The notes under the pieces: generated by a model
What the model saw: only the letters and a program-made list of their open reading frames with translations
Told to the model about the DNA's origin: nothing
Database searches by the model: none
Assembly (NCBI GenBank): GCA_900299215.1
Contig: OMIY01000368.1
Coordinates: 1 to 48,680, forward strand
Origin: a bacterium
GTDB taxonomy: Bacteria; Bdellovibrionota_B; Oligoflexia; Oligoflexales; CAIYRB01
Direction: 5' to 3'
Length of the DNA: 48,680 nucleotides
Shown: positions 3,351 through 15,763 of the stretch, one piece after another
Layout: each line of letters starts with the position of its first letter
Position numbering within the stretch: position 1 is the stretch's first letter
Position numbers and translations under genes: made by a program

Positions 3351-4958
3351 ATGCAGAGCGCGGTACTAATTATCGAGCGCGGACCCGAGCCTGGGAAGAG
3401 AGTTCCTCTGGCGCATTTCCCCGTTACAATTGGTCGCGATTCAGCAAATCAGATCGTGATTGATGATGAGGAAGTTTCGCGATTCCACTTGAGAATCAAG
3501 CGACGCGGTCGTCTCTTTATTTGTGAGGACCTTGAGTCACGAAACGGTACTTATATAAACGGAGATCGAGTTCTCAATTCGATTCTTCAGAACAATGACA
3601 AACTACTGGTCGGATCAACTGAGTTTCAATTCGTCACTTCAGAGCCAAATGTCCAACTTACAAACGAAATCACCAGTTTTGACATGATCATTACGGAAGA
3701 TTTGGGAATCAAAGGACCAATTGATTTAGGCAAGTCAGAGACTAGTCGAAAGTTTACACCGCAACGGCTAAATCAACTAGCTGTGATTAACCAATCATCA
3801 AACGACCACAAAACCATAAAAGAGATCTATGATTTACATAGCAACATCCTTGTCATCAACCAATTCGAAGAGGCGAGCAAAGCACTTCTAAAATCGATTG
3901 CCAAGCTTATGCCCTCCGCCGCAAAATCTGCGCTTTTCATGTGGAGCTCCGCAAGTCGTCACCTTATCCCTATTGCAACTCGCCACATGCGAAGAAAAAA
4001 GGAGTCTTTCGTCCTGAGTCAGCGGGCGTTCGAAGACGTCATCGCACGGAAGCAGGGAATCATACTTCCAGCTGACCTATCGCAGATCGATTTGAAGAAC
4101 GGAACGCAAAGAATAATATTGCCAATGGTTCATCAGGATGACCCCATTTGCATTTTGCATATCGAAACACTAAGCGGGAGTGATTCATCTCACCTTATGC
4201 GAGAGATAGAAGCGGCCCAGGCTCTAATTAGTCGCTGCGCCCCATCTTTCGAAAACCTTCTGCTCAAAAGAGAACTTGATGCTTGGATGGTAGGAATGAT
4301 TGAAACGATGGTCGCCACCATAGAGGCAAAAGACACGTACACTCACGGTCACTCGGAAAGAGTAAGCCGGTACTCAATCGCAATTGCTGATGAACTAAAA
4401 CTAAACAGGGAAATTAAAAGGCTTCTTCTCATAAGCGCACTTTGCCACGATATTGGCAAAATTGGCATTCCGGATGCAATCCTTAAGAAAGCCTCTATGT
4501 TAAGTGCAGAGGAGTATGAAGAAATGAAACTTCACCCAGCCATTGGCTCGGACATAGTTAGCCATATGCCTAACTCTCAACGGTTTATCTCAGGAGTTAA
4601 GCATCATCATGAAAAATGGGACGGCACTGGCTATCCAGATGGCCTGGTAGGCGAAGATATTCCATTTTTTGGGAGAATTGTTGGCATTGCTGATGTATTT
4701 GATGCAATGGTCTCTGGTCGAGCCTACTCTGGTTTCATCGATCAATCAGATGCAATTGAGCGAATTCAGGATGAAAAAGAACTTTTTGATCCAGAAATTC
4801 TAAAGGCCATGGTCCGGGCTCACGACCACGGTACACTTACACTTAAAACGAGCACTGCAAACAATGCGGTGGAAGAAAGCACGAACACAGGCGCAACTAA
4901 ATCCGCGGCTAGTCAGCTCAATCGCATAACGGTCACGCCGAAACCTAAACGCTCTTAG
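3351..4958 (+). CDS. FHA + GAF-like + HD-GYP cyclic-dinucleotide phosphodiesterase
   Basis: FHA motifs IGRD...VSRFH...DLESRNGTYING; HD-GYP motifs DTYTHGHSERV, HDIGK, HHHEKWDGTGYPDGL, ADVFDAM. The central region is GAF-like (inference). Confidence 0.9.
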   Translation: MQSAVLIIERGPEPGKRVPLAHFPVTIGRDSANQIVIDDEEVSRFHLRIKRRGRLFICEDLESRNGTYINGDRVLNSILQNNDKLLVGSTEFQFVTSEPNVQLTNEITSFDMIITEDLGIKGPIDLGKSETSRKFTPQRLNQLAVINQSSNDHKTIKEIYDLHSNILVINQFEEASKALLKSIAKLMPSAAKSALFMWSSASRHLIPIATRHMRRKKESFVLSQRAFEDVIARKQGIILPADLSQIDLKNGTQRIILPMVHQDDPICILHIETLSGSDSSHLMREIEAAQALISRCAPSFENLLLKRELDAWMVGMIETMVATIEAKDTYTHGHSERVSRYSIAIADELKLNREIKRLLLISALCHDIGKIGIPDAILKKASMLSAEEYEEMKLHPAIGSDIVSHMPNSQRFISGVKHHHEKWDGTGYPDGLVGEDIPFFGRIVGIADVFDAMVSGRAYSGFIDQSDAIERIQDEKELFDPEILKAMVRAHDHGTLTLKTSTANNAVEESTNTGATKSAASQLNRITVTPKPKRS

Positions 4959-4985
4959 TCGCAAGGCCGTTATCAACGCCACTCT

Positions 4986-5014
4986 TTGGGTATTCCCTCC
5001 GAATACGTTACAAT
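4986..5014 (+). promoter_or_regulatory. Possible sigma70 promoter for the motor genes
   Basis: TTGGGT-17 nt-TACAAT, upstream of RBS AGGAG (5028-5032) and ATG 5040. Confidence 0.35.
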
Positions 5015-5039
5015 AAAGAAAACTAATAGGAGCTATCCC

Positions 5040-5846
5040 ATGTGGACTGAGGTCGCGCGCAGCTTCCAGCTTGGAAACGGCTACATCCTCTCAATGCTCA
5101 TCATTGGATTCATAGCACTTGTCATCTTCTTTGAACGGGTGATCATGATCCAGGGAGTCTATAACATCAATTTTGGTAAATTCCTCAATAACCTTCGCAA
5201 AATGGTGTTGGCGGAAGACATTAATCGCGCCATAAGCCTTTGCCGCAACACATCGTCAACATCTTTGCCGAAAATTGCCTGTAAAGCCCTGGAAGCTGCT
5301 GATAGCGACCCCACCAGAGTTCGCGGTACGATTGAAGAAGAGGCTCTGGACTTTCTGCCCGCCATTGAGCGAAGAATTGGAGCACTGCCCGCACTGACCC
5401 TGATGATCATGCTCATTGGCATACTCGGTACCATCGATTCACTCTGGACCGCCTTTCAATCCGTCGACGTGCTCGATACAGCAAAAAAGCAGGCCACTAT
5501 TGCCCAGGGAATCGCCAGCTCACTATCACCAACAGCTCTTGGACTTTTGTTCGGCACCATTTTACTTGCTGGATATTATTTCCTAAAGGGAATCGCACTA
5601 AACTTAACAGAAGAAATGCATCACGGTGTGGCGGTTCTTTTTAACTTATTGGCCCCGAGAGACACAGTCTCTTACGTCCCTATCCCTGAAGTGAGCGAGT
5701 CCGCTCACCAACATCACTCCACCCCACAAGTTGCTCAGGCCGAGCAACATTCTTCTAGCAATCAAGCATCCACCGCTGCCAAACCAGAAGAGAACTTCGA
5801 TGACGCTTCTATCGAAGACATCAAGGACGAAGAAGAGATCATCTGA
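5040..5846 (+). CDS. MotA/TolQ/ExbB proton-channel family protein (AglR-like)
   Basis: Three TM segments; family motifs FFER, IGILGTIDSLWTAF, IAQGIASSLSPTALGL. Start placed at ATG 5040 after AGGAG; acidic C-terminal tail. Confidence 0.85.
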   Translation: MWTEVARSFQLGNGYILSMLIIGFIALVIFFERVIMIQGVYNINFGKFLNNLRKMVLAEDINRAISLCRNTSSTSLPKIACKALEAADSDPTRVRGTIEEEALDFLPAIERRIGALPALTLMIMLIGILGTIDSLWTAFQSVDVLDTAKKQATIAQGIASSLSPTALGLLFGTILLAGYYFLKGIALNLTEEMHHGVAVLFNLLAPRDTVSYVPIPEVSESAHQHHSTPQVAQAEQHSSSNQASTAAKPEENFDDASIEDIKDEEEII

Positions 5847-6354
5847 TGAGCAGTGGCTCTTCCGAGCTCTGGGTATCAGCATATTCGCTTTATTCGTTAT
5901 AATCACCGCTAGCCTACGTGTAGTAACACTTTCTGCACGATATGGGATTGTGCCTTTAGAAATTCCAGTAGTTCAGAGTCAGGTTCCCGATCCAAGATTT
6001 CATCAGTTCCAAGAATTCAGCAAAGACAGCCTAACAAACAACACTACGGCAGTTGTCGTAACGACTGAGGCCTTCTATTTCGGTGATCTAGGGGCGTTTT
6101 CGACAGAGTTTTCGGCCTCGTCAGATAAGTACACTGTTCCACATAAGGATGGGGTTCCCCAATTGAGACGACTGATCCAAGAACTCGACGTTTGGGTCAA
6201 AAGTCGCTCTAAAAGTGCGAACATTCCCTTAACTCCAGTTCTTGTGATGATCCCCTCAGGGGATATTCCTATGCCAATACTTATTCAGGTCGTTGCAGAA
6301 CTTAGGTCCTCATCAATATTTAAGCGCGTGATTTTAAGCAGTGGGATGAGTTGA
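5800..6354 (+). CDS. Divergent ExbD/TolR-like (AglS/AglQ-like) single-pass protein
   Basis: Basic N-terminus, one TM (WLFRALGISIFALFVIITASL) and ExbD-like C-terminus VLVMIPSGDIPMPILIQVVAEL. Directly follows the MotA/TolQ gene; start placed at in-frame ATG 5800. Confidence 0.55.
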   Translation: MTLLSKTSRTKKRSSDEQWLFRALGISIFALFVIITASLRVVTLSARYGIVPLEIPVVQSQVPDPRFHQFQEFSKDSLTNNTTAVVVTTEAFYFGDLGAFSTEFSASSDKYTVPHKDGVPQLRRLIQELDVWVKSRSKSANIPLTPVLVMIPSGDIPMPILIQVVAELRSSSIFKRVILSSGMS

Positions 6355-6920
6355 TGACTTCAGAGCTTGGCACCGAAAATTATTGGTCAAGCCGCTATGA
6401 GTCAGTTACACAGCGGCTTAAGAAGCCTATTTGGTGGTTTCCTTACCCGTGTCTGATAACGTTTGGCCTTCAACTCCTACTTACCGCACACATCTTGTTT
6501 TCGACCAATCCACGCATCGGTCAACCAGCAGAGGTGATTAGATATCCTTCGACCCCAACGAGAGACTCCGCCATCTGGCTAAGTATTACTACCAAAGATA
6601 AACAAACGATAATCTCTACCAACGACAGAAGAGTTTTTAAATGGCGATCAAACCTCAGATCAACTGAAGATTTGAAGGATTTCACGTTGTATCTGCGACG
6701 TAGAATGGTCGAGGAAATTCAAACTGCGTCGTTAGTTCAACGGGCTATGCGATCTCAAACAAGAGTGGTTTTGGCGGCTGATCAGGGGTTGAAGTATAAC
6801 GATATTAAGCCCATCATTTTCGCCCTAGCGCAAGCCGGAATCAGTAGCTACGCATTCGAAACTTTAAACCCTGTCGTCGCAATCTCAGAGGATCACAAGA
6901 TCCATGGAGAGTTGCGATGA
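6351..6920 (+). CDS. ExbD/TolR family protein (AglQ/AglS-like)
   Basis: One TM plus the typical ExbD C-terminus VVLAADQGLKYNDIKPIIFALAQAGISSYAF; overlapped junctions on both sides. Confidence 0.75.
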   Translation: MMTSELGTENYWSSRYESVTQRLKKPIWWFPYPCLITFGLQLLLTAHILFSTNPRIGQPAEVIRYPSTPTRDSAIWLSITTKDKQTIISTNDRRVFKWRSNLRSTEDLKDFTLYLRRRMVEEIQTASLVQRAMRSQTRVVLAADQGLKYNDIKPIIFALAQAGISSYAFETLNPVVAISEDHKIHGELR

Positions 6921-8596
6921 ACCAATCAAAAAAGAGAACGATTAGTACAAAGTCGAAGCTTTCCAATATTCTCCACGTCGAAATTCTTCAGAATGGTTCA
7001 AAAATCGCTTCGGCAGAGCTTCCGCTGAAGCGGAGCGGGAAGATTCAAATAAGTTCCGACTCACACGGTGAACTTTCGATACCGTATTACCCTCTACCCG
7101 AAGGGAAGCTCGATATCGCTTATTTCCGGCGACGCGAAGTAATTTTGGACCTAAATCCAGAATGGCAAGGCTTCTGCACAACTAAGGGAACTGGTGTAAT
7201 TATCGAGAAGGGCAAGGCCTCGAAGAATCCACTTGTGCTTAATCGTGGCGATATTGCGAGCATAAATTACGGCGACCTTCGAGTCATGCTTCGGATTGGA
7301 GGAGCCAATAAGCCGATTAAACCTTCACCCTATAGGGTTGCTCCATCCTACCGAGGTTCGATTTTCGCATTGCTCATTCCGACAAAGCTCGAGTGGCAAA
7401 TCTCTTTAATCGCAACATTTATGTCTTTAGTGGTCATTGGTAGTGCAACCATTGGCTTACTTAACCGGCCTGTAAAAAGACCGACTAAACTCACAGAAAT
7501 CGATGATGATTATGTCTTGCACTTTATTTCCCCGAACAACCTAATCCACGCTCCAGAAGCTTTGCAGAAAAACCTACGCCGTAGTTCCATGCTTCGTCAG
7601 GTCATTGAATACTATACAAGTATGACCTCAAGCATGATGGGTTGGCCGATTGAGAATGAAAAGCTGTTGCTGCCAAGTACTCTTGCGACAGACAAATCTT
7701 TGCATGAAAGCATGCAGGCTATCACGGCTGGAAAAAGACGCCGCCAAATCGAGATCGATAAGCTCCAACTAATGAAAAACGATGTTGGAGTTATCAGTGT
7801 TCCTTCAGTAATTGGCGAGTCAGTAACCACCAGCATGCTAAGAATTCAAGACAAGATCGCGATAGGTCATCAATCTTTTGACGCCAATCTGGCCGCGAAA
7901 AGGAAGATTCAGCAAATATTTCCGCATGATCCGGATTATGCCTGGGAAGAATATCGAAACGTGACACCAGTCGACTCTCTTTCGGACGCGACGGGAAAGA
8001 TCAAACCTTTCGAGTTACTTAGTGAGGAAGAGTTGGTTTATCGGGATTCAAAGTTGTTTGCCGCAAAAGCCAGGGTAAAACAGCAGCCCCTCGCTCGCTC
8101 AATGCAATCAATTGACTATGTAAATCCCGAGACTGATCAGCCAGTGGGTATGCCCGATGGCGTAAGATTTGTGTCATTTGCAACCATCACAGATCCGTAC
8201 ATTGCCGATGAAAAGCTATATCACCTGCACGCTCCAGAATTTGGCCAACAAGAACAGCCGGTTAAACCAAAGCCGGTTATCGTGAAGGAGCCCCTGGTCG
8301 GTGAAATTGAGCCAAGCCTCATCGTCGGCTATATCCAAAAGAATCGTTTTGAACTTCAATTATGTTACGAGCTTGCGTTACGTCGAAACGAACAGGCCGC
8401 AGGTACGATGGAGTGGCGCTGGCGAATCGATTCAAGGGGCGTTACTTCCGATCTGGCTTTGATCAGCACTAGTATCAAAGATCCACGTATGACAGATTGC
8501 ATCCGTAAAAAGATTGGTGCCTGGCGCTTCCCGCGACCGAAAAACGGCAGTGTCGAGGTAAGTTATCCATTTGAATTTGCACCTACTAAGGGATAG
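6917..8596 (+). CDS. AgmX/PglI (GltG/GltJ-like) TonB-C domain inner-membrane protein
   Basis: Cytoplasmic beta-rich N-terminus and one TM (WQISLIATFMSLVVIGSATIGLL). C-terminal LQLCYELALRRN...WRIDSRG...DCIRKKIGAWRFPRPKNGSVEVSYPFEF is typical of AgmX/PglI C-terminal domains. Confidence 0.8.
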   Translation: MNQSKKRTISTKSKLSNILHVEILQNGSKIASAELPLKRSGKIQISSDSHGELSIPYYPLPEGKLDIAYFRRREVILDLNPEWQGFCTTKGTGVIIEKGKASKNPLVLNRGDIASINYGDLRVMLRIGGANKPIKPSPYRVAPSYRGSIFALLIPTKLEWQISLIATFMSLVVIGSATIGLLNRPVKRPTKLTEIDDDYVLHFISPNNLIHAPEALQKNLRRSSMLRQVIEYYTSMTSSMMGWPIENEKLLLPSTLATDKSLHESMQAITAGKRRRQIEIDKLQLMKNDVGVISVPSVIGESVTTSMLRIQDKIAIGHQSFDANLAAKRKIQQIFPHDPDYAWEEYRNVTPVDSLSDATGKIKPFELLSEEELVYRDSKLFAAKARVKQQPLARSMQSIDYVNPETDQPVGMPDGVRFVSFATITDPYIADEKLYHLHAPEFGQQEQPVKPKPVIVKEPLVGEIEPSLIVGYIQKNRFELQLCYELALRRNEQAAGTMEWRWRIDSRGVTSDLALISTSIKDPRMTDCIRKKIGAWRFPRPKNGSVEVSYPFEFAPTKG

Positions 8597-8601
8597 CAAT
8601 T

Positions 8602-10308
8602 TTGGACTCTTCGGAAACGATTTTCTCACCAAATGGCCTGCCTGGCACGGTTCGCATTATTCCACTGGGTGGTTGTGGCGAATTTGGTATGAACCTCACA
8701 TGCTTCCTATCTGCTGGAAAGCTTTTTGTTGTAGACGCCGGAGTGCGTTTCCCTGAGGCATTTCGATTAGGCGTTGATGCGGTGCTGCCCGATGTAGAAA
8801 AATGGTTCACAGAGGCAGGTGGTGTCTATGCTTACATTTTGACCCACGGTCATGAAGATCATTTGGGAGCAATGCCTCATCTCCTACCACGTTGGCCAGC
8901 GCCCGTATATGGCACAGCCTGGACGATCTCACTTCTGCGAAACAAACTAATGAGACTCGGACGGGATCCAGACGCCTTTAAGCTCAACATTGTTGCTCCC
9001 GGAGACCACGTTGTCACCGAGGGTTTTGATGCAGAGTACGTACACATTAACCACTCAATTCCGATGGCGTGCTCCCTATACTTGCGTTTTCCTGAGCTTT
9101 CCATTTTTCATACTGGCGATTTTAAGTTTGAATCAGACCCCATAATCGAAAATCCCGCAGACCTCGACCGCATAAAGCGGATTGGCCAAGAGGGTGTCGA
9201 TTTGCTTTTGGCGGATAGCACTAACGCCGAGAAATCTGGGAACTGTCCGTCTGAAAAATCCGTTTACGAACCCCTACTAAGAGTCGTGAATCAGTGTAAG
9301 CAGACCGCAGTAATCACTACTTTTTCAAGCAATTTATGGCGAATAAAAACTATCGCGGATGTTTGTCGAGCATCGGGTCGCCGACTTTATGTGACTGGGG
9401 GCGGTCTCGAAAACACACTCAACGTAGCCCAATCAGTCGGGATTTACGAGCTGCCTACTGAGCTCAGAATCAGTGATGACCTGCTAACCAGTGTACCGCG
9501 TGAGAGGTTGCTTGTTCTGGCAACTGGTTGCCAAGGTGAAAGGCGATCCAGTTTAGCAAGAATCGCAAATGGCGAGCATAGATACTTTCGTTTAGATGCT
9601 GGCGACACGGTAATATGGTCATCAAGACTAATACCCGGCAATGAGAAAGCCGTTATAAATTTGTCAAACAATCTTCAGAGATTAGGCGCTCAGATTGTGA
9701 CCGCCCGCGACGAACCTGGCATACATGTTAGCGGTCATGCGTATGGTGGCGATGTTGAACATCTGATCGATTTAGTGAATCCTCGACATTTCCTTCCCGT
9801 GCACGGTGCCTTCAGTCAGCTTAATGCAAATCATCAGCGCCCAACAACTTCGGGACGATCCGACACCCAAGCACAAATCATAGAATCTGGCGACATCATC
9901 GATGCTACCCGTGATGAAATTAGGATCCTAGGACGTATTGATGTGGAACTTAAGTTCTTAGAGAGTGATGGGAGCGGTTTGCTTACTTACGGTGAACTAA
10001 GAGACCGTCTGCGGATAGGAGAGCTAGGCCTAGCTCGAATTGATGGCGTTTACAGCCTACAAACTGAAACTTGGCTTGTTGAACCCACTGTAGAGCTTGC
10101 AGGCATTGGATTTCCCGATTCCGTGAAAAAAAATGATTGGATTCAATCGAAAGCTAAGCAACTTAGGCAACTCGTGCCACAGTTCCTGCTGCAAAAAAAA
10201 CTATCTGCTGAGCAAATATCGGAAGAGGTAAGGCAGCTAATTCGTAGGGATTTGCAGCGTTTTTTACGAAAAAAACCCGTAGTTTCGGTCAAAATTCACT
10301 GCGTCTGA
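8602..10308 (+). CDS. rnj: Ribonuclease J
   Basis: PLGGCGEFGMN, THGHEDH, HSIP, HTGDFK, DSTNA, HVSGHA and PVHG motifs. Confidence 0.92.
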   Translation: MDSSETIFSPNGLPGTVRIIPLGGCGEFGMNLTCFLSAGKLFVVDAGVRFPEAFRLGVDAVLPDVEKWFTEAGGVYAYILTHGHEDHLGAMPHLLPRWPAPVYGTAWTISLLRNKLMRLGRDPDAFKLNIVAPGDHVVTEGFDAEYVHINHSIPMACSLYLRFPELSIFHTGDFKFESDPIIENPADLDRIKRIGQEGVDLLLADSTNAEKSGNCPSEKSVYEPLLRVVNQCKQTAVITTFSSNLWRIKTIADVCRASGRRLYVTGGGLENTLNVAQSVGIYELPTELRISDDLLTSVPRERLLVLATGCQGERRSSLARIANGEHRYFRLDAGDTVIWSSRLIPGNEKAVINLSNNLQRLGAQIVTARDEPGIHVSGHAYGGDVEHLIDLVNPRHFLPVHGAFSQLNANHQRPTTSGRSDTQAQIIESGDIIDATRDEIRILGRIDVELKFLESDGSGLLTYGELRDRLRIGELGLARIDGVYSLQTETWLVEPTVELAGIGFPDSVKKNDWIQSKAKQLRQLVPQFLLQKKLSAEQISEEVRQLIRRDLQRFLRKKPVVSVKIHCV

Positions 10309-11138: not shown

Positions 11139-11939
11139 GTGCGTTTGGCCACCGACCCCCAAATTAGCATAAATGCGTCCGGCGCTACCCACATTGGGCT
11201 TGTCCGCTCGACGAATCAGGATTCTTACCTGATCGATGAGGAAATGCGCCTATTCATTGTAGCCGACGGCATGGGCGGGCATGCTGGTGGCGAAATTGCC
11301 AGTAATTTATGCGTAAATTCGATATCTCAATATCTTCGTCAGCAAAGCAATTTATTTAGTAGTACTAACGAACGTCAGCATCCCGATGCACGCATTAGCA
11401 ATGCAATGGCAAATGCAATAAATCACGCATCGACTAAAATTTACGAACGCGCTCTTGAAGAGCCATCACTGCGCGGCATGGGTACTACAGCGACAGCAGT
11501 TGTGGTTGTCGACAAATTCGCTTATGTCGCCCACGTTGGAGATAGTCGATGTTATCTCTTGCGTCGTGGATTTATTTACCAGGTAACGAACGATCACTCT
11601 CTTGTTAGCGAACAAGTGAGGGCTGGAATCCTCACAAAAGAGGAGGCTGATCTTCACCATTTACGTAACGTCATCACCCGAAGTGTTGGATACCAGGAAG
11701 AAGAGGATGCCGATACGACAAGTCTCGCTTTGGAAGACGGCGATATCTTACTCCTTTGCAGTGATGGTCTTCACGGCAAAGTGAACGATAAAGAGCTTTC
11801 GGGAATTCTCACTAATCATCAAACCGCCGCTCCTCCAGTTCTAATTGAACGTGCCAATGAACGTGGCGGCGAAGACAACATAACTGCAGTCACGTTGCAG
11901 ATATCGTTTAAACCTACAAGTTCGTCTCCCTCCACTTAA
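11139..11939 (+). CDS. PP2C-type Ser/Thr protein phosphatase (Stp1/PrpC family)
   Basis: GLVRSTNQD, VADGMGGHAGGEIAS, GMGTT, HVGDSR, LLCSDGL, GGEDN. Confidence 0.95.
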   Translation: MRLATDPQISINASGATHIGLVRSTNQDSYLIDEEMRLFIVADGMGGHAGGEIASNLCVNSISQYLRQQSNLFSSTNERQHPDARISNAMANAINHASTKIYERALEEPSLRGMGTTATAVVVVDKFAYVAHVGDSRCYLLRRGFIYQVTNDHSLVSEQVRAGILTKEEADLHHLRNVITRSVGYQEEEDADTTSLALEDGDILLLCSDGLHGKVNDKELSGILTNHQTAAPPVLIERANERGGEDNITAVTLQISFKPTSSSPST

Positions 11940-12004
11940 AGCCCATTTTAAACAGCCCCCCACCGACCAACGCCCTCGCCTTTTTGCTGAGGTCCCAACC
12001 AGCC

Positions 12005-12976
12005 ATGAAACGAATCACAATCATGATTATCCCCGACGGGTGCCGCGCCACTAGGCAGGTGCGTGTCCCGGAGTCAATTATCAAGTTCGGTGTAGCCCTG
12101 AGCTTTCTCGCCTTGGCAGGTGCTGGTTTCATTTTTTTCGACTACTTAGAGCTTCGTTATTTTCGCAGCAACTTCAGAACACTGGCCGCAGAAAACGAAG
12201 ATCTTAAAGGCGAAGCCAAACTGCTGATGCAAAATCTAGAAGAGGTCAAGGGTGCTCTAAGACGCGTTCAGGACTATACCGGCAAACTTGGAGAGCTAAC
12301 TGCACTAAAAGTTCAGAAGTTTGCGAAAAAAACTGGTATCGGCCCCCTCACCGTCGAAGAGTTTAATGTGGCTCAACAAGCTGGAGCGGTAGAGGTTAAA
12401 AAAGACACAAACGCTTATGTGCCCGTGGGCCTGAATATCGACAAGTTAGTATTCCGGCCGATTTTTGATCGCCTAGCCTCAATTGGCCATGCGGCGAACA
12501 GTCACGCCCTTGAGCTCCAACATTTACTTTCTACTTTGAGTCAGCAGAAAAATTTGCTGTCTTCGATACCTTCGGTTGCACCAGTTGACGGCTGGGTGAC
12601 AAGTGGGTTTGGAACTCGAGTATCGCCGTTTACGGGAGAACGAACGGCCCATGCTGGCGTCGATATTGCTGCTCCGGTTGGAACGCCAATTCTAGCTCCT
12701 GCGGACGGCGTCGTAATCTTCACTGGAGCCAAGGCCGGATTCGGTAACTTCGTAATGATTGCACATGGTTATGGCGTTGTCACCCGGTACGGGCACAACC
12801 ATCAGAATCTCGTGCAACCGGGGCAAAAAGTCAGCAGAGGGGAGCAAATTGCTACAGTCGGTGAAACCGGTCGAGCCACCGGACCCCATCTTCATTACGA
12901 GGTTGTGATAAACGGCCGGCTTGAAAATCCGCAGAAGTTCATCCTAGACATGGCTGACGTCTATCGGATCTATTGA
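12005..12976 (+). CDS. M23 family peptidoglycan metallo-endopeptidase with N-terminal TM and coiled coil
   Basis: HAGVD (HxxxD), YGH, ATGPHLHYEV (HxH); start placed at ATG 12005. Confidence 0.93.
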   Translation: MKRITIMIIPDGCRATRQVRVPESIIKFGVALSFLALAGAGFIFFDYLELRYFRSNFRTLAAENEDLKGEAKLLMQNLEEVKGALRRVQDYTGKLGELTALKVQKFAKKTGIGPLTVEEFNVAQQAGAVEVKKDTNAYVPVGLNIDKLVFRPIFDRLASIGHAANSHALELQHLLSTLSQQKNLLSSIPSVAPVDGWVTSGFGTRVSPFTGERTAHAGVDIAAPVGTPILAPADGVVIFTGAKAGFGNFVMIAHGYGVVTRYGHNHQNLVQPGQKVSRGEQIATVGETGRATGPHLHYEVVINGRLENPQKFILDMADVYRIY

Positions 12977-13025: not shown

Positions 13026-13069
13026 GCACCAGATGCAACAACCCGACTGATTAAGAATTGGGCAGCCTG

Positions 13070-15763
13070 ATGCAGATCCTCAAAAAGATTTTTGGTAGCA
13101 AGAATGACCGTGAGCTTAAGCGTTTAGTGGCAAAAGTTGCCCACATAAACAGTCTTGAGCCTTCCATGAAGAGCCTCACGGACGCACAATTACAAGGCAA
13201 GACCGCTGAGTTTAAGCAGCGCCTAGCCAATGGTGAGACGCTTGACTCACTGTTACCAGAGGCCTTTGCCACGGTGAGAGAGGCGGGCTGGCGCGTTGAT
13301 CGCAAGCGGCATTTTGACGTGCAACTCATTGGCGGCATGGTTTTGCATGAGGGCAAGATTGCCGAAATGCGCACGGGAGAGGGCAAAACTCTCACGGCAA
13401 CCGCTCCTGTATACCTGAATGCTTTGGCGGGTAAGGGTGTCCATGTAATTACGGTCAATGACTATCTCGCCCGACGTGACGCGGAATGGATGGGACGCAT
13501 TTATGGGTTTCTTGGGCTTTCGACAGGCATCATCGTACACGGACTAAGTGACTCCCAGCGTCGGGACTCCTACAAATGCGACATCACTTACGGTACCAAT
13601 AATGAGTTCGGATTTGACTACCTACGCGACAACATGAAGACCGAGCCATCAAGGCTTGTGCAGCGTGATCATTTCTTTGCAATAGTCGACGAAGTGGACT
13701 CTATTCTGATCGACGAGGCTAGAACACCGCTAATCATCTCCGGTCCTTCGGAAACGAACCTTGGCCTCTATCAAACAGTTAACACCTCAATCCCTGGATT
13801 GCAGAAGGACAGCGACTACATTTTTGATGAGAAGTCGCGGACAGTCGCTTTGACTGAAGATGGAATCAGTAAGCTCGAGAAGCGACTTCGCTTAGAAAAC
13901 CTCTACGACCCAAGCAATATCGAGTATTTACACCACGTTCAACAGGCGTTGAAGGCACATGTCGTATTTAAAAAGGATGTAGACTACGTAGTTCGCGATG
14001 GAAAAGTGGTCATCGTGGATGAACATACCGGCCGACTGATGCCAGGAAGACGCTACAGCGATGGCCTGCACGGTGCTTTGGAAGCAAAAGAGCATGTTGA
14101 GGTTCAGAACGAAACGCAAACTCTCGCAACAATCACTTTCCAGAACTTCTTCCGTCTTTATGGAAAATTAGGCGGCATGACAGGTACTGCCGACACGGAG
14201 TCGGTAGAGTTTAAAAAGATCTACAACCTTGACGTAGTAGTGATTCCGACGAACCGTGATATGGTCCGCAAAGATCATGAAGATGTAGTCTTCAGAACGG
14301 CTCGTGAAAAATTCAATGTTATTGCTGATGAGATTGCGGAAGCTCAAAAAAAGGGCCAACCAGTACTCGTTGGTACAGTATCGGTTGAAAAATCCGAGCT
14401 TTTGTCGAGCTTACTTCGGAAGCGCAACATCCCACACGAAATCTTGAATGCGAAAAACCACGCTCGCGAGGCTGAAATTATCGCGGCCGCTGGGCAGAAG
14501 GGTCAGGTTACCATCTCCACCAACATGGCTGGTCGGGGAACTGACATTATGCTCGGCGAGGGAGTCAAAGACCTCGGTGGTTTGTACGTTATCGGTACCG
14601 AAAGGCACGAGTCTCGTAGGATTGATAACCAATTAAGAGGTCGTTCTGGACGACAAGGAGACCCAGGACAGTCCAAATTTTTCTTGTCGTTAGAAGACGA
14701 CCTCATGCGGATTTTTGCCTCTGATAAACTTTCGGCTTTGATGGGACGCCTTGGAATGCAAGAGGGTGAGGCGATTATTTCGCCTATGGTTACTCGCGCG
14801 ATTGCTCGAGCGCAAAAACGCGTCGAAGAGCAAAACTTCTCAAGCCGCAAGCATCTCCTTGAGTACGATGACGTAATGAACCAGCAAAGGCAGGTGATTT
14901 ACAGTCTGCGACGCCAGGCTTTACACGCAGAGAAGCGCTTGGAGTTCGTAGACCATGCCTTAGCTGCAATCGCAACAGGGGCATTAAGCGAGGTAACTCC
15001 AGAGCGCACAGGCACAGGTCAATGGGACTGGCAGCAGGTACAAAAACTAATACAGTCTTTGCTTCATACTCATATTGTCCTCGAAAAACTGTCGCCCTCA
15101 GATTCACAGCTAGACACCGTCGTTGACGAAGTCACCAGACAGGTTATGGCGGCATATAAAGCTAAGACTGACAAAATTGGGCCTGAGAATACCCAGAGAC
15201 TTGAAAGTTGGGTTTATCTCCAAGTTATCGACAAAGCCTGGAAAAACCACTTGCTTGGAATGGACTCCCTGAAAGACAGCGTCAGTCTTCGTGGGTACGG
15301 ACAACGAGACCCGTTGCAAGAATACAAGAAAGAAGGCTTCCGCCTCTTCTCAGAAATGATGGGCCGCATCGAGGAGGAGTCTGCTACCGCTCTAGTCTCC
15401 GTAGAGATTCCAGATCAATCTCCGGAAGAGCTGGCAAAGGAACTTGAGCCTGAACCAGAGATAGATGACTCTTTAATTGAAATGCAGCACCCAGATCCTC
15501 AAGATGCAAATCCTCATGTCAGTAACGGGGCTAATTCGGAGGGTGGTTATTCATCAACCAAATCCAATGGTGAACTGATCTACCATGGTTCGCGGTCAAC
15601 TACTGCTCAAGGCGGGGGATCTGCGAGTCGCCAACAGCCCACACCTCAAACATTCAAACGCGATGTTGAGAAAGTGGGCAGAAACGATCCATGTCCGTGT
15701 GGTTCTGGCAAGAAATTCAAAAAGTGTCATGGGTCCGTGCCGGGGGATGATGCGCACGCATAG
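13070..15763 (+). CDS. secA: Preprotein translocase ATPase SecA
   Basis: [51 protein letters not shown]; C-terminal [23 protein letters not shown]. Confidence 0.98.

Follow-up and report, generated by a model that had tools for sequence, protein, structure and literature searches.

We analysed a 48,680-nucleotide stretch of bacterial DNA (positions 1 to 48,680 of contig OMIY01000368.1 of assembly GCA_900299215.1, called the window below), in which a gene for a TolQ/ExbB-like ring subunit (A), two genes for small TolR/ExbD-like axle subunits (B1 and B2) and a gene for their putative partner (T) follow one another on the forward strand. The main finding is that neither axle carries the buried aspartate (Asp) of this superfamily, known from MotB D32, ExbD D25, TolR D23 and AglQ D28. 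To our knowledge, an axle-subunit Asp is needed for proton use in every studied relative except GldLM. The canonical cycle needs this Asp to be protonated beside the threonine (Thr) residues of the ring; without an axle Asp the Asp-Thr pair cannot form, so the complex cannot run that cycle. The locus is best explained as a lineage-wide paralogue of the 5:2 complexes of TolQ-TolR, ExbB-ExbD or AglRQS type. What the complex does in its present form is harder to say, and we tentatively favour, at somewhat less than an even chance, that it has left the canonical cycle and is mainly a platform for T, with a conserved Asp of A (D133) as a docking residue.

A reading of the region from its sequence only (the sequence-only reading) had described it as a Tol/Exb/Agl-type motor, and the strings which it quoted are all present at their places. 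The type assignment holds. A matches the ring-subunit profile Pfam MotA_ExbB (PF01618) over residues 96-211 with 50.9 bits (cut-off 22.9). For the small proteins, B1 has no Pfam match, the ExbD/TolR profile (PF02472) included, and B2 reaches 19.6 bits against PF02472 in its C-terminal part only, under the cut-off of 25.4. We modelled both with AlphaFold 2 (AF2) on 36-sequence alignments and compared the models with 48,161 representative chains using VIA. Each model has one long N-terminal helix and a beta-alpha domain, with a predicted local distance difference test score (pLDDT) of 82.5 for B1 and 87.6 for B2. It turned out that the best VIA match of B1 was TolR 5by4_A (Z 7.4, root-mean-square deviation (rmsd) 3.8, 99 aligned), with TolR 2jwk at rank 7 and ExbD 2pfu at rank 13 of all chains, and that the top three of B2 were TolR 5by4 (Z 8.0, rmsd 3.5, 84 aligned), ExbD 2pfu (Z 6.3) and TolR 2jwk (Z 6.2). 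These Z values are middling, and a VIA Z under 8 can reflect a common arrangement; the assignment is convincing because of the rank and the gene context. Foldseek placed TolR first for the B1 model (E 2.7e-3), and for the B2 model it gave generic alpha/beta matches only, with TolR not among the top 50. Taken together, the models point with moderate strength to TolR/ExbD folds for B1 and B2, with a single N-terminal transmembrane (TM) helix first. Searched as profiles against PDB sequences, the B1 and B2 alignments found neither TolR nor ExbD. Besides, hhalign aligned B1 with B2 in the N-terminal tail and helix only (probability 51%), and gave no TM alignment of either with the four canonical ExbD/TolR proteins of the same genome, where only the last beta-alpha-beta was aligned (probability about 1%); the register of the B1 and B2 helices relative to TolR is therefore taken from motif and length arguments.

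The loss of the canonical buried Asp from both B subunits, noticed earlier in the window, is found there and across the relatives. B1 reads ...KKRSSDEQ-WLFRALGISIFALFVIITASL-R and B2 contains PIWWFPYPCLITFGLQLLLTAHILF; neither hydrophobic stretch has D or E, and both helices lack the buried Asp near the cytoplasmic end (TolR D23, ExbD D25). In the same genome, all four canonical ExbD/TolR-like proteins carry N-x-x-P-x-x-D, and the Asp is visible in four of five MotB-like proteins, the fifth being cut by sequence trimming. As these canonical paralogues keep the Asp, its absence from B1 and B2 is not chance. For the relatives, we counted acids within the 19-residue hydrophobic core at 95 loci with both B genes (4 duplicate genomes and 1 mis-assigned locus, L021, among them), and D or E occurred inside the core in 17 B1 and 4 B2 proteins. 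Eleven of the 17 are Glu at the periplasmic helix end in the distant clade described below, five (L109, L110, L111, L117 and L118, all GAID subclade members) stand near the canonical place, 2-3 residues inside the core from its cytoplasmic end, and the remaining one is the mis-assigned L021. In B2, only the acid of L071 (I-D-S-L-L) stands at a canonical-like place. The conserved W-F-P-x-P of B2 recalls the canonical P-x-x-D, and the Asp place, three residues after the Pro, is A, C, F or G.

The sole acids near the B1 helix are D16 and E17 (5845-5850), which stand just ahead of it, within about two residues. If they act as the carrier, the complex would still be a proton-driven 5:2 motor, with the acid at the cytoplasmic pore mouth, help from the Thr ring and B2 His47, and one active axle. 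Such a shifted carrier is in our estimate unlikely, though several features speak for it: the predicted helix (residues 17-43) begins immediately after D16 and at E17, the main clade conserves the channel residues T131 and T165 of A, in one distant subclade FD is followed at once by about 20 hydrophobic residues, 10 of the 11 members of the GAID subclade have D/E in B1 about 8 residues after the KKR motif, and position 47 of B2 is polar throughout (mostly H, else Q, K, Y, N or D). However, the last two bases of the A stop are also the first two of codon 16 of B1, and the residue follows that stop. Of 96 rows, the 47 with TGA all have D/E at this position, the 30 with TAA all have N/K, and the 19 with TAG all have S/R. 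An indispensable proton carrier at position 16 would force TGA, yet TGA is not forced: the acid occurs in 47 of the 96 rows, and no TGA excess signals selection. In about 38 of the 96 rows (a count from the listing), among them that of the cultured Oligoflexus tunisiensis (L029), the 12 residues that follow the KKR motif, at that end of B1, contain no acid. D16 also lies among Ser, Glu and Gln, whereas the Asp of the four canonical proteins stands in a hydrophobic P-x-x-D setting, and helix length would put the canonical place 5-6 residues further in. On alignment evidence, D16/E17 are not conserved across the family, and the D/E of SSDEQW is unlikely to be the canonical acid.

The end of A and the start of B1 overlap. 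ATG 5800 is the only ATG, GTG or TTG between TTG 5731 and the B1 helix; since it lies inside the FDD codons of A, the first 16 codons of B1 share their bases with the end of A, namely its last 15 codons and the stop codon, in a different frame. Positions 5800-5846 thus encode both the tail FDDxSxEDIKDEEEII of A and the basic N-terminus (M)xLQSKISRTKKRLS of B1. The tail of A read from these positions is near-invariant, the ATG of B1 falling in the codons of its conserved FDD, and B1 varies where the codons of A vary synonymously (K/R/M/T), so selection seems to favour the frame of A. Nothing in the family is more conserved than the C-terminal DEEEII, which comes after a variable Ser/Thr/Ala/Pro-rich linker, as DIKDEEEII in the main and basal clades and as PDEEEII in the distant clade. 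It looks like a short docking motif for a cytoplasmic partner.

To place the Asp of A, we built a profile from 21 A orthologues and aligned it with TolQ of E. coli (PDB 8odt; E 4.4e-4). The alignment is gap-free across TM2 and TM3 and gives T131 = T145, D133 = W147, S160 = E173 and T165 = T178. Both channel Thr (equivalents of TolQ T145/T178 and ExbB T148/T181) are therefore retained in the A of the window, and the Glu at the periplasmic start of TM3 (TolQ E173, ExbB E176) is missing, with S160 in its place and G, S, A or N at this position in the main clade. The three canonical ring paralogues of the same genome all have GISEAL.

A FastTree tree of 93 distinct A sequences, rooted with these three paralogues, contains four groups. 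The main clade (n = 56) has D/E at position 133 in 55 sequences and N133-E134 in one, T131 in 53, T165 in 48 and Y15 in 53. Within it lies the GAID subclade (n = 11), which has D133 in all 11 sequences and neither T131 nor T165 in any; E/D157 is present in 11, R/K160 in 7, and the B1 acid mentioned above in 10. The B2 of this subclade (loci L109-L122) has neither the WFPxP motif nor the His. The distant clade (n = 24) has Q/N/H/Y at 133 and I/V at 15, with T131 in 3 sequences and T165 in none. The basal clade (L070 and L071, n = 2) has Ile at 133 and Arg at 160 and keeps T131 and T165. In total, an acid at 133 or 134 occurs in 67 of 67 sequences of the main and GAID groups (133 itself in 66), and 35 of the 93 sequences are without the Thr ring. 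The Asp of the GTID motif is thus conserved as a novelty of the main clade; as read from the tree, D133 arose once and has thereafter been better retained than the channel Thr.

The earlier suggestion that the acid has moved to A, taken as this Asp replacing the lost B Asp inside the channel, is not supported by the data. D133 is present without Thr in the GAID subclade and absent from the distant and basal clades, which also lack the B Asp, so loss of the B Asp and gain of D133 do not track. D133 lies two residues from T131 and about 6 below the periplasmic end of TM2. According to a passage of a preprint, TolQ Leu15, Leu16, Phe143, Trp147 and His151 bind the TolA helix at the ring periphery (10.1101/2024.11.27.625625), and the part of a review on binding modes gives the same peripheral mode for TonB and TolA (PMC12905483). 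By our own reading of conservation, TM2 has a stripe of small residues (G127, G130, T131, S134 and A138) and an opposite stripe of L129, D133, W136 and F139. By alignment, D133 maps to the TM2 face that is the outer, TolA-binding face in E. coli TolQ as that preprint passage describes it, where Trp147 contacts the TolA helix outside the pentamer.

This placement bears on the possibility that the ion-binding carboxylate has moved from axle to ring, with five D133 sites working against an uncharged axle. A precedent exists in GldLM, where the passage seen describes GldL E49 (in TMH2) as the essential acid and GldM E31 as dispensable (PMC8986121). Since GldLM runs on a ring-borne acid, relocation is not far-fetched, and the acid at 133 or 134 in every sequence of two clades and the closeness to T131 would suit it, but the geometry here does not fit: the outer face of TolQ Trp147 is half a turn from T131. 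Besides, the 24 distant and 2 basal sequences, whose axles have no Asp either, carry Q/N/H/Y or I at 133, and D133 persists where the Thr ring is lost. With D133 at the place of TolQ Trp147 and no tracking with the B Asp, a move of the acid into the channel is improbable.

Salt bridges between D133 and B1 R40 or B2 H47 were considered and dropped, as the canonical register puts both residues about 13-20 residues above the Thr ring; the one with R40 is also disfavoured by the L055-type group, which misses R40 and keeps D/E133. R40 is Arg across most of the main clade and stands at the periplasmic end of the B1 helix. His47 of B2 is likewise at a periplasmic helix end, and both are opposite the invariant loop residues D146 and K150 of A, with which they may form a gate or plug contact.

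Another ion, for instance Na+, might be bound without any carboxylate, by the Thr ring and backbone carbonyls freed by prolines. Prolines do occur where the canonical motif has P-x-x-D (WFPxP in B2, WxxP in many B1), and the Thr ring is retained in the main clade. The loss of that ring in 35 of 93 sequences speaks against such a site, and we consider it very improbable. We know of no stator that binds its ion without a carboxylate in this way, and the sodium-driven PomB keeps its Asp.

The platform reading, which we favour, connects D133 with the partner T. A scaffold that is not energised, the last option of the sequence-only reading, may likewise be right. T has a conserved cytoplasmic N-domain, one TM helix, a long periplasmic part and, in its last 90 residues, an AgmX/PglI (TonB-C-like) domain found with NF033768 at 82.4 bits (cut-off 40). 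In an alignment of 90-odd orthologues, a conserved Glu precedes the TM helix, a basic residue directly follows it, and the periplasmic half of the helix contains GxxxG; no conserved Ser/His pattern of the SHLS motif is seen. Pfam TonB_C is weakly matched in 6 of 30 T orthologues. Against the GltG equivalog NF033760, T reaches 54.7 bits (cut-off 650), with a match confined to the C-terminal 97 residues, and it is outside that equivalog. The N-domain resembles PrgH/FHA clusters with a score of 0.85, a lead only, and is possibly FHA-like. On the favoured reading, one TolQ-like ring subunit A would surround two unlike TolR-fold axles, B1 and B2, and be joined by an envelope-spanning GltG-like T. 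D133 and Tyr15 of TM1 would form a polar docking or packing site in the outer groove of the ring, for the T helix or a neighbouring A, and D133 would be no ion-binding site in the pore. The complex would have abandoned the canonical proton cycle and act mainly as a membrane platform which holds and positions T, controlled by the FHA/HD-GYP protein encoded upstream and by phospho-signalling. Any remaining ion coupling would need different, clade-specific polar residues. Of the 67 acid-carrying sequences, 64 have Y15, which lies near the periplasmic end of TM1; the clades without the acid have I or V at position 15 in each of their 26 sequences.

Several points weigh against this reading. The co-occurrence of Y15 and D133 is a single evolutionary event and thus weak evidence, and the orientation of D133 comes from homology to one structure, by way of a preprint passage. 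T131 and T165 still stand in 53 and 48 of the 56 main-clade sequences, which argues for continued use of the pore. Thr-less subclades have gained charges near the pore (E157/R160 in A with the B1 acid; H160 in A with a B1 Glu), and these look like rewiring, not decay. In the subclade of the window itself, all members seen have D/E at B1 position 16, where the acid may have a local role. A buried Asp facing lipid would be costly in A subunits without a bound T. For three A chains together with residues 1-195 of T, complex prediction returned a median of 0.25 against a mark of 0.32, which is evidence neither way.

The gene order of the set is conserved throughout its phylum-level lineage. The protein collection contains 303 A homologues at E <= 1e-3, including one of Oligoflexus tunisiensis. 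When one genome per species was scanned, 57 loci were obtained, and each bears the label Oligoflexales, Oligoflexia or unclassified. In the GTDB phylum-level group of the window genome (Oligoflexia), 117 of 131 genomes contain A at E <= 1e-25, and among the 83 of good quality 76 do so; by table reading, about 108 matches are strong and of the family type. The order A-B1-B2-T-RNase J is intact in 51 of the 57 loci (B1/B2 went undetected by BLAST in 4) and in all 40 further loci drawn from weaker A matches, and the distant clade keeps it though its A is just 31-38% identical. An orthologue of the FHA/HD-GYP gene lies upstream of A in 45 of the 57 loci, contig ends cutting some others. No BLASTP match to it was found in the about 1.4-1.6 kb upstream of A at 24 distant-clade loci, nor within 6 kb upstream at the two basal loci L070 and L071. 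Metagenome contigs scanned with the two basal-clade A proteins gave no match, and the basal clade stays at two members. A complex that is near-universal in its lineage, tightly coupled and strongly conserved has a job. It is nearly an even call, in our estimate, that this near-universal core complex of TolQR/AglRQS type works as a 5:2 complex without the B Asp, either with a site that moves between subclades (A-133, A-157/160 and places in B1) or as a first pseudo-motor, stator-like and non-rotary.

In the window, six closely packed genes occupy positions 3351-10308 of the forward strand; the features are listed in the table below.

Table. Genes, residues and motifs of the locus in the window (residues of B2 are counted from TTG 6351)
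Feature	Position	Strand	Remarks
Gene for FHA domain and HD-GYP-type (HD_5) phosphodiesterase	3351..4958	+	Pfam HD_5 E 3.7e-35, FHA E 4.3e-17; directly 5' of A
A subunit, TolQ/ExbB-like, 268 aa	5040..5846	+	ATG 5040; stop TGA 5844-5846; Pfam MotA_ExbB
Y15 of A	5082-5084	+	TM1
T131 of A	5430-5432	+	in GILGT
D133 of A	5436-5438	+	in GTID
S160 of A	5517-5519	+	in GIASSL
T165 of A	5532-5534	+	in SPTALGL
DIKDEEEII C-terminus of A	5817-5843	+	invariant
B1, TolR/ExbD-fold protein (predicted), 184 aa	5800..6354	+	fold from AF2 model
D16 of B1	5845-5847	+	
E17 of B1	5848-5850	+	
Predicted TM helix of B1, residues 17-43	5848-5928	+	
R40 of B1	5917-5919	+	
B2, TolR/ExbD-fold protein (predicted), 188 aa from ATG 6354	6354..6920	+	open reading frame listed from TTG 6351; WFPYP motif
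P31 of B2	6441-6443	+	
C34 of B2	6450-6452	+	canonical Asp place if P31 is the family Pro
H47 of B2	6489-6491	+	
NPR of B2	6507-6515	+	
T, GltG-like partner, 559 aa	6917..8596	+	NCBIfam NF033768
TM helix of T, residues 160-182	7394-7462	+	conserved E159 before, R184 after
C-terminal AgmX/PglI domain of T	8312-8578	+	
RNase J gene	8602..10308	+	NCBIfam RNase J family E 1.7e-108; always adjoins T

The genes A, B1, B2 and T are translationally coupled, all four: besides the overlap of A and B1, the stop codon of B1 (6352-6354) shares one base with the ATG of B2, and the stop of B2 and the start of T overlap as ATGA. In all clades (main, distant and basal), the RNase J gene is found 3' of T (loci L017-L143), also where A shares just about 31% identity. 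No reason for this linkage is apparent, and RNase J is probably a conserved neighbour and no more. Just downstream are a PP2C-type Ser/Thr phosphatase and an M23 peptidase (11139-12976), and then SecA (13058-15763). The two FHA-type domains in the operon and the PP2C/M23 neighbours hint at phospho-Thr control and a link to the cell envelope. The host genome is an assembly of 3.9 Mb in 459 contigs with nine MotA/ExbB matches, of which the A of the window is the weakest. Its contig C111 carries, beside tolB, a canonical Tol-Pal set whose TolR has the Asp; the locus is therefore not the Tol-Pal motor but an extra system. Elsewhere, the genome encodes three more proteins that end in an AgmX/PglI domain (contigs C234, C105 and C314), and one of them shares its contig with a canonical ExbB/ExbD pair.

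In the literature on the Asp of ExbD, TolR and MotB and on their paralogues, the parts seen describe no Asp-less family; the supplements may hold relevant alignments. Titles and abstract openings of the Oligoflexus gliding literature contain nothing on this locus, and the relevant passages of two comparative papers (PMC12505986 and PMC12204202) mention no such family; in the text seen of PMC12505986, the terms aspartate, Asp32 and D32 do not occur. The family matters for the models of 5:2 motors (MotAB, ExbBD, TolQR and AglRQS), which, GldLM alone excepted, rest on one axle Asp. A natural, conserved family that lacks this Asp is a direct test of which architectural parts are essential, and it is available in about a hundred species, including the cultured O. 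tunisiensis and complete genomes of the distant clade, with subclades that differ in the polar residues they keep. Besides, the D133/Y15 pair may mark how a GltG/TonB-like helix docks on the ring.

Among the known systems, A is by sequence most like TolQ-TolR(-TolA) of the Tol-Pal system (E. coli structures 8odt, 9ddm), its best match in PDB as well as in NCBIfam. The two share the GxxGT and xT motifs of TM2 and TM3, B subunits of (predicted) TolR fold, and a partner with one TM helix and a TonB/TolA-like C-terminal domain. Unlike TolQ-TolR, the present set has two differing B subunits without the buried Asp (TolR D23), and its A has Ser for TolQ E173, Asp for Trp147 and an invariant acidic tail, DEEEII. 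Unlike TonB and TolA, T has no conserved SHLS motif. ExbB-ExbD-TonB belongs to the same superfamily and has its genes in the same succession (A, B, B, TonB-like), two exbD genes in one operon being common; here, however, neither ExbD D25 nor ExbB E176 has a counterpart, and Pfam ExbD does not match B1 and scores B2 under the cut-off. GldL-GldM (PorL-PorM) is a 5:2 motor with its acid on the ring, as D133 is on the ring subunit A, but there is no detectable homology, and GldL E49, as described in the passage cited above, contacts the GldM helix whereas D133 maps to the outer face.

The closest parallel is AglR-AglQ-AglS with GltG, from the gliding machinery of Myxococcus xanthus. Both sets combine one TolQ-like subunit with two different TolR-like subunits, and T has the AgmX/PglI C-terminal domain of GltG and probably its FHA-like N-domain, the latter as a lead only. 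The differences lie in the axles and in the partner: AglQ and AglS have a conserved mid-membrane Asp according to the description in a review passage (PMC9389320), which B1 and B2 lack, and T scores 54.7 bits against a whole-protein cut-off of 650 for GltG, with no other Glt genes in the window. In the relevant passage of a modelling study with AlphaFold, an AglQ/AglS heterodimer sits in the AglR pentamer and the GltG helix and FHA domain lie outside it (PMC11761067). By analogy, the set of the window would work most like AglRQS with GltG.

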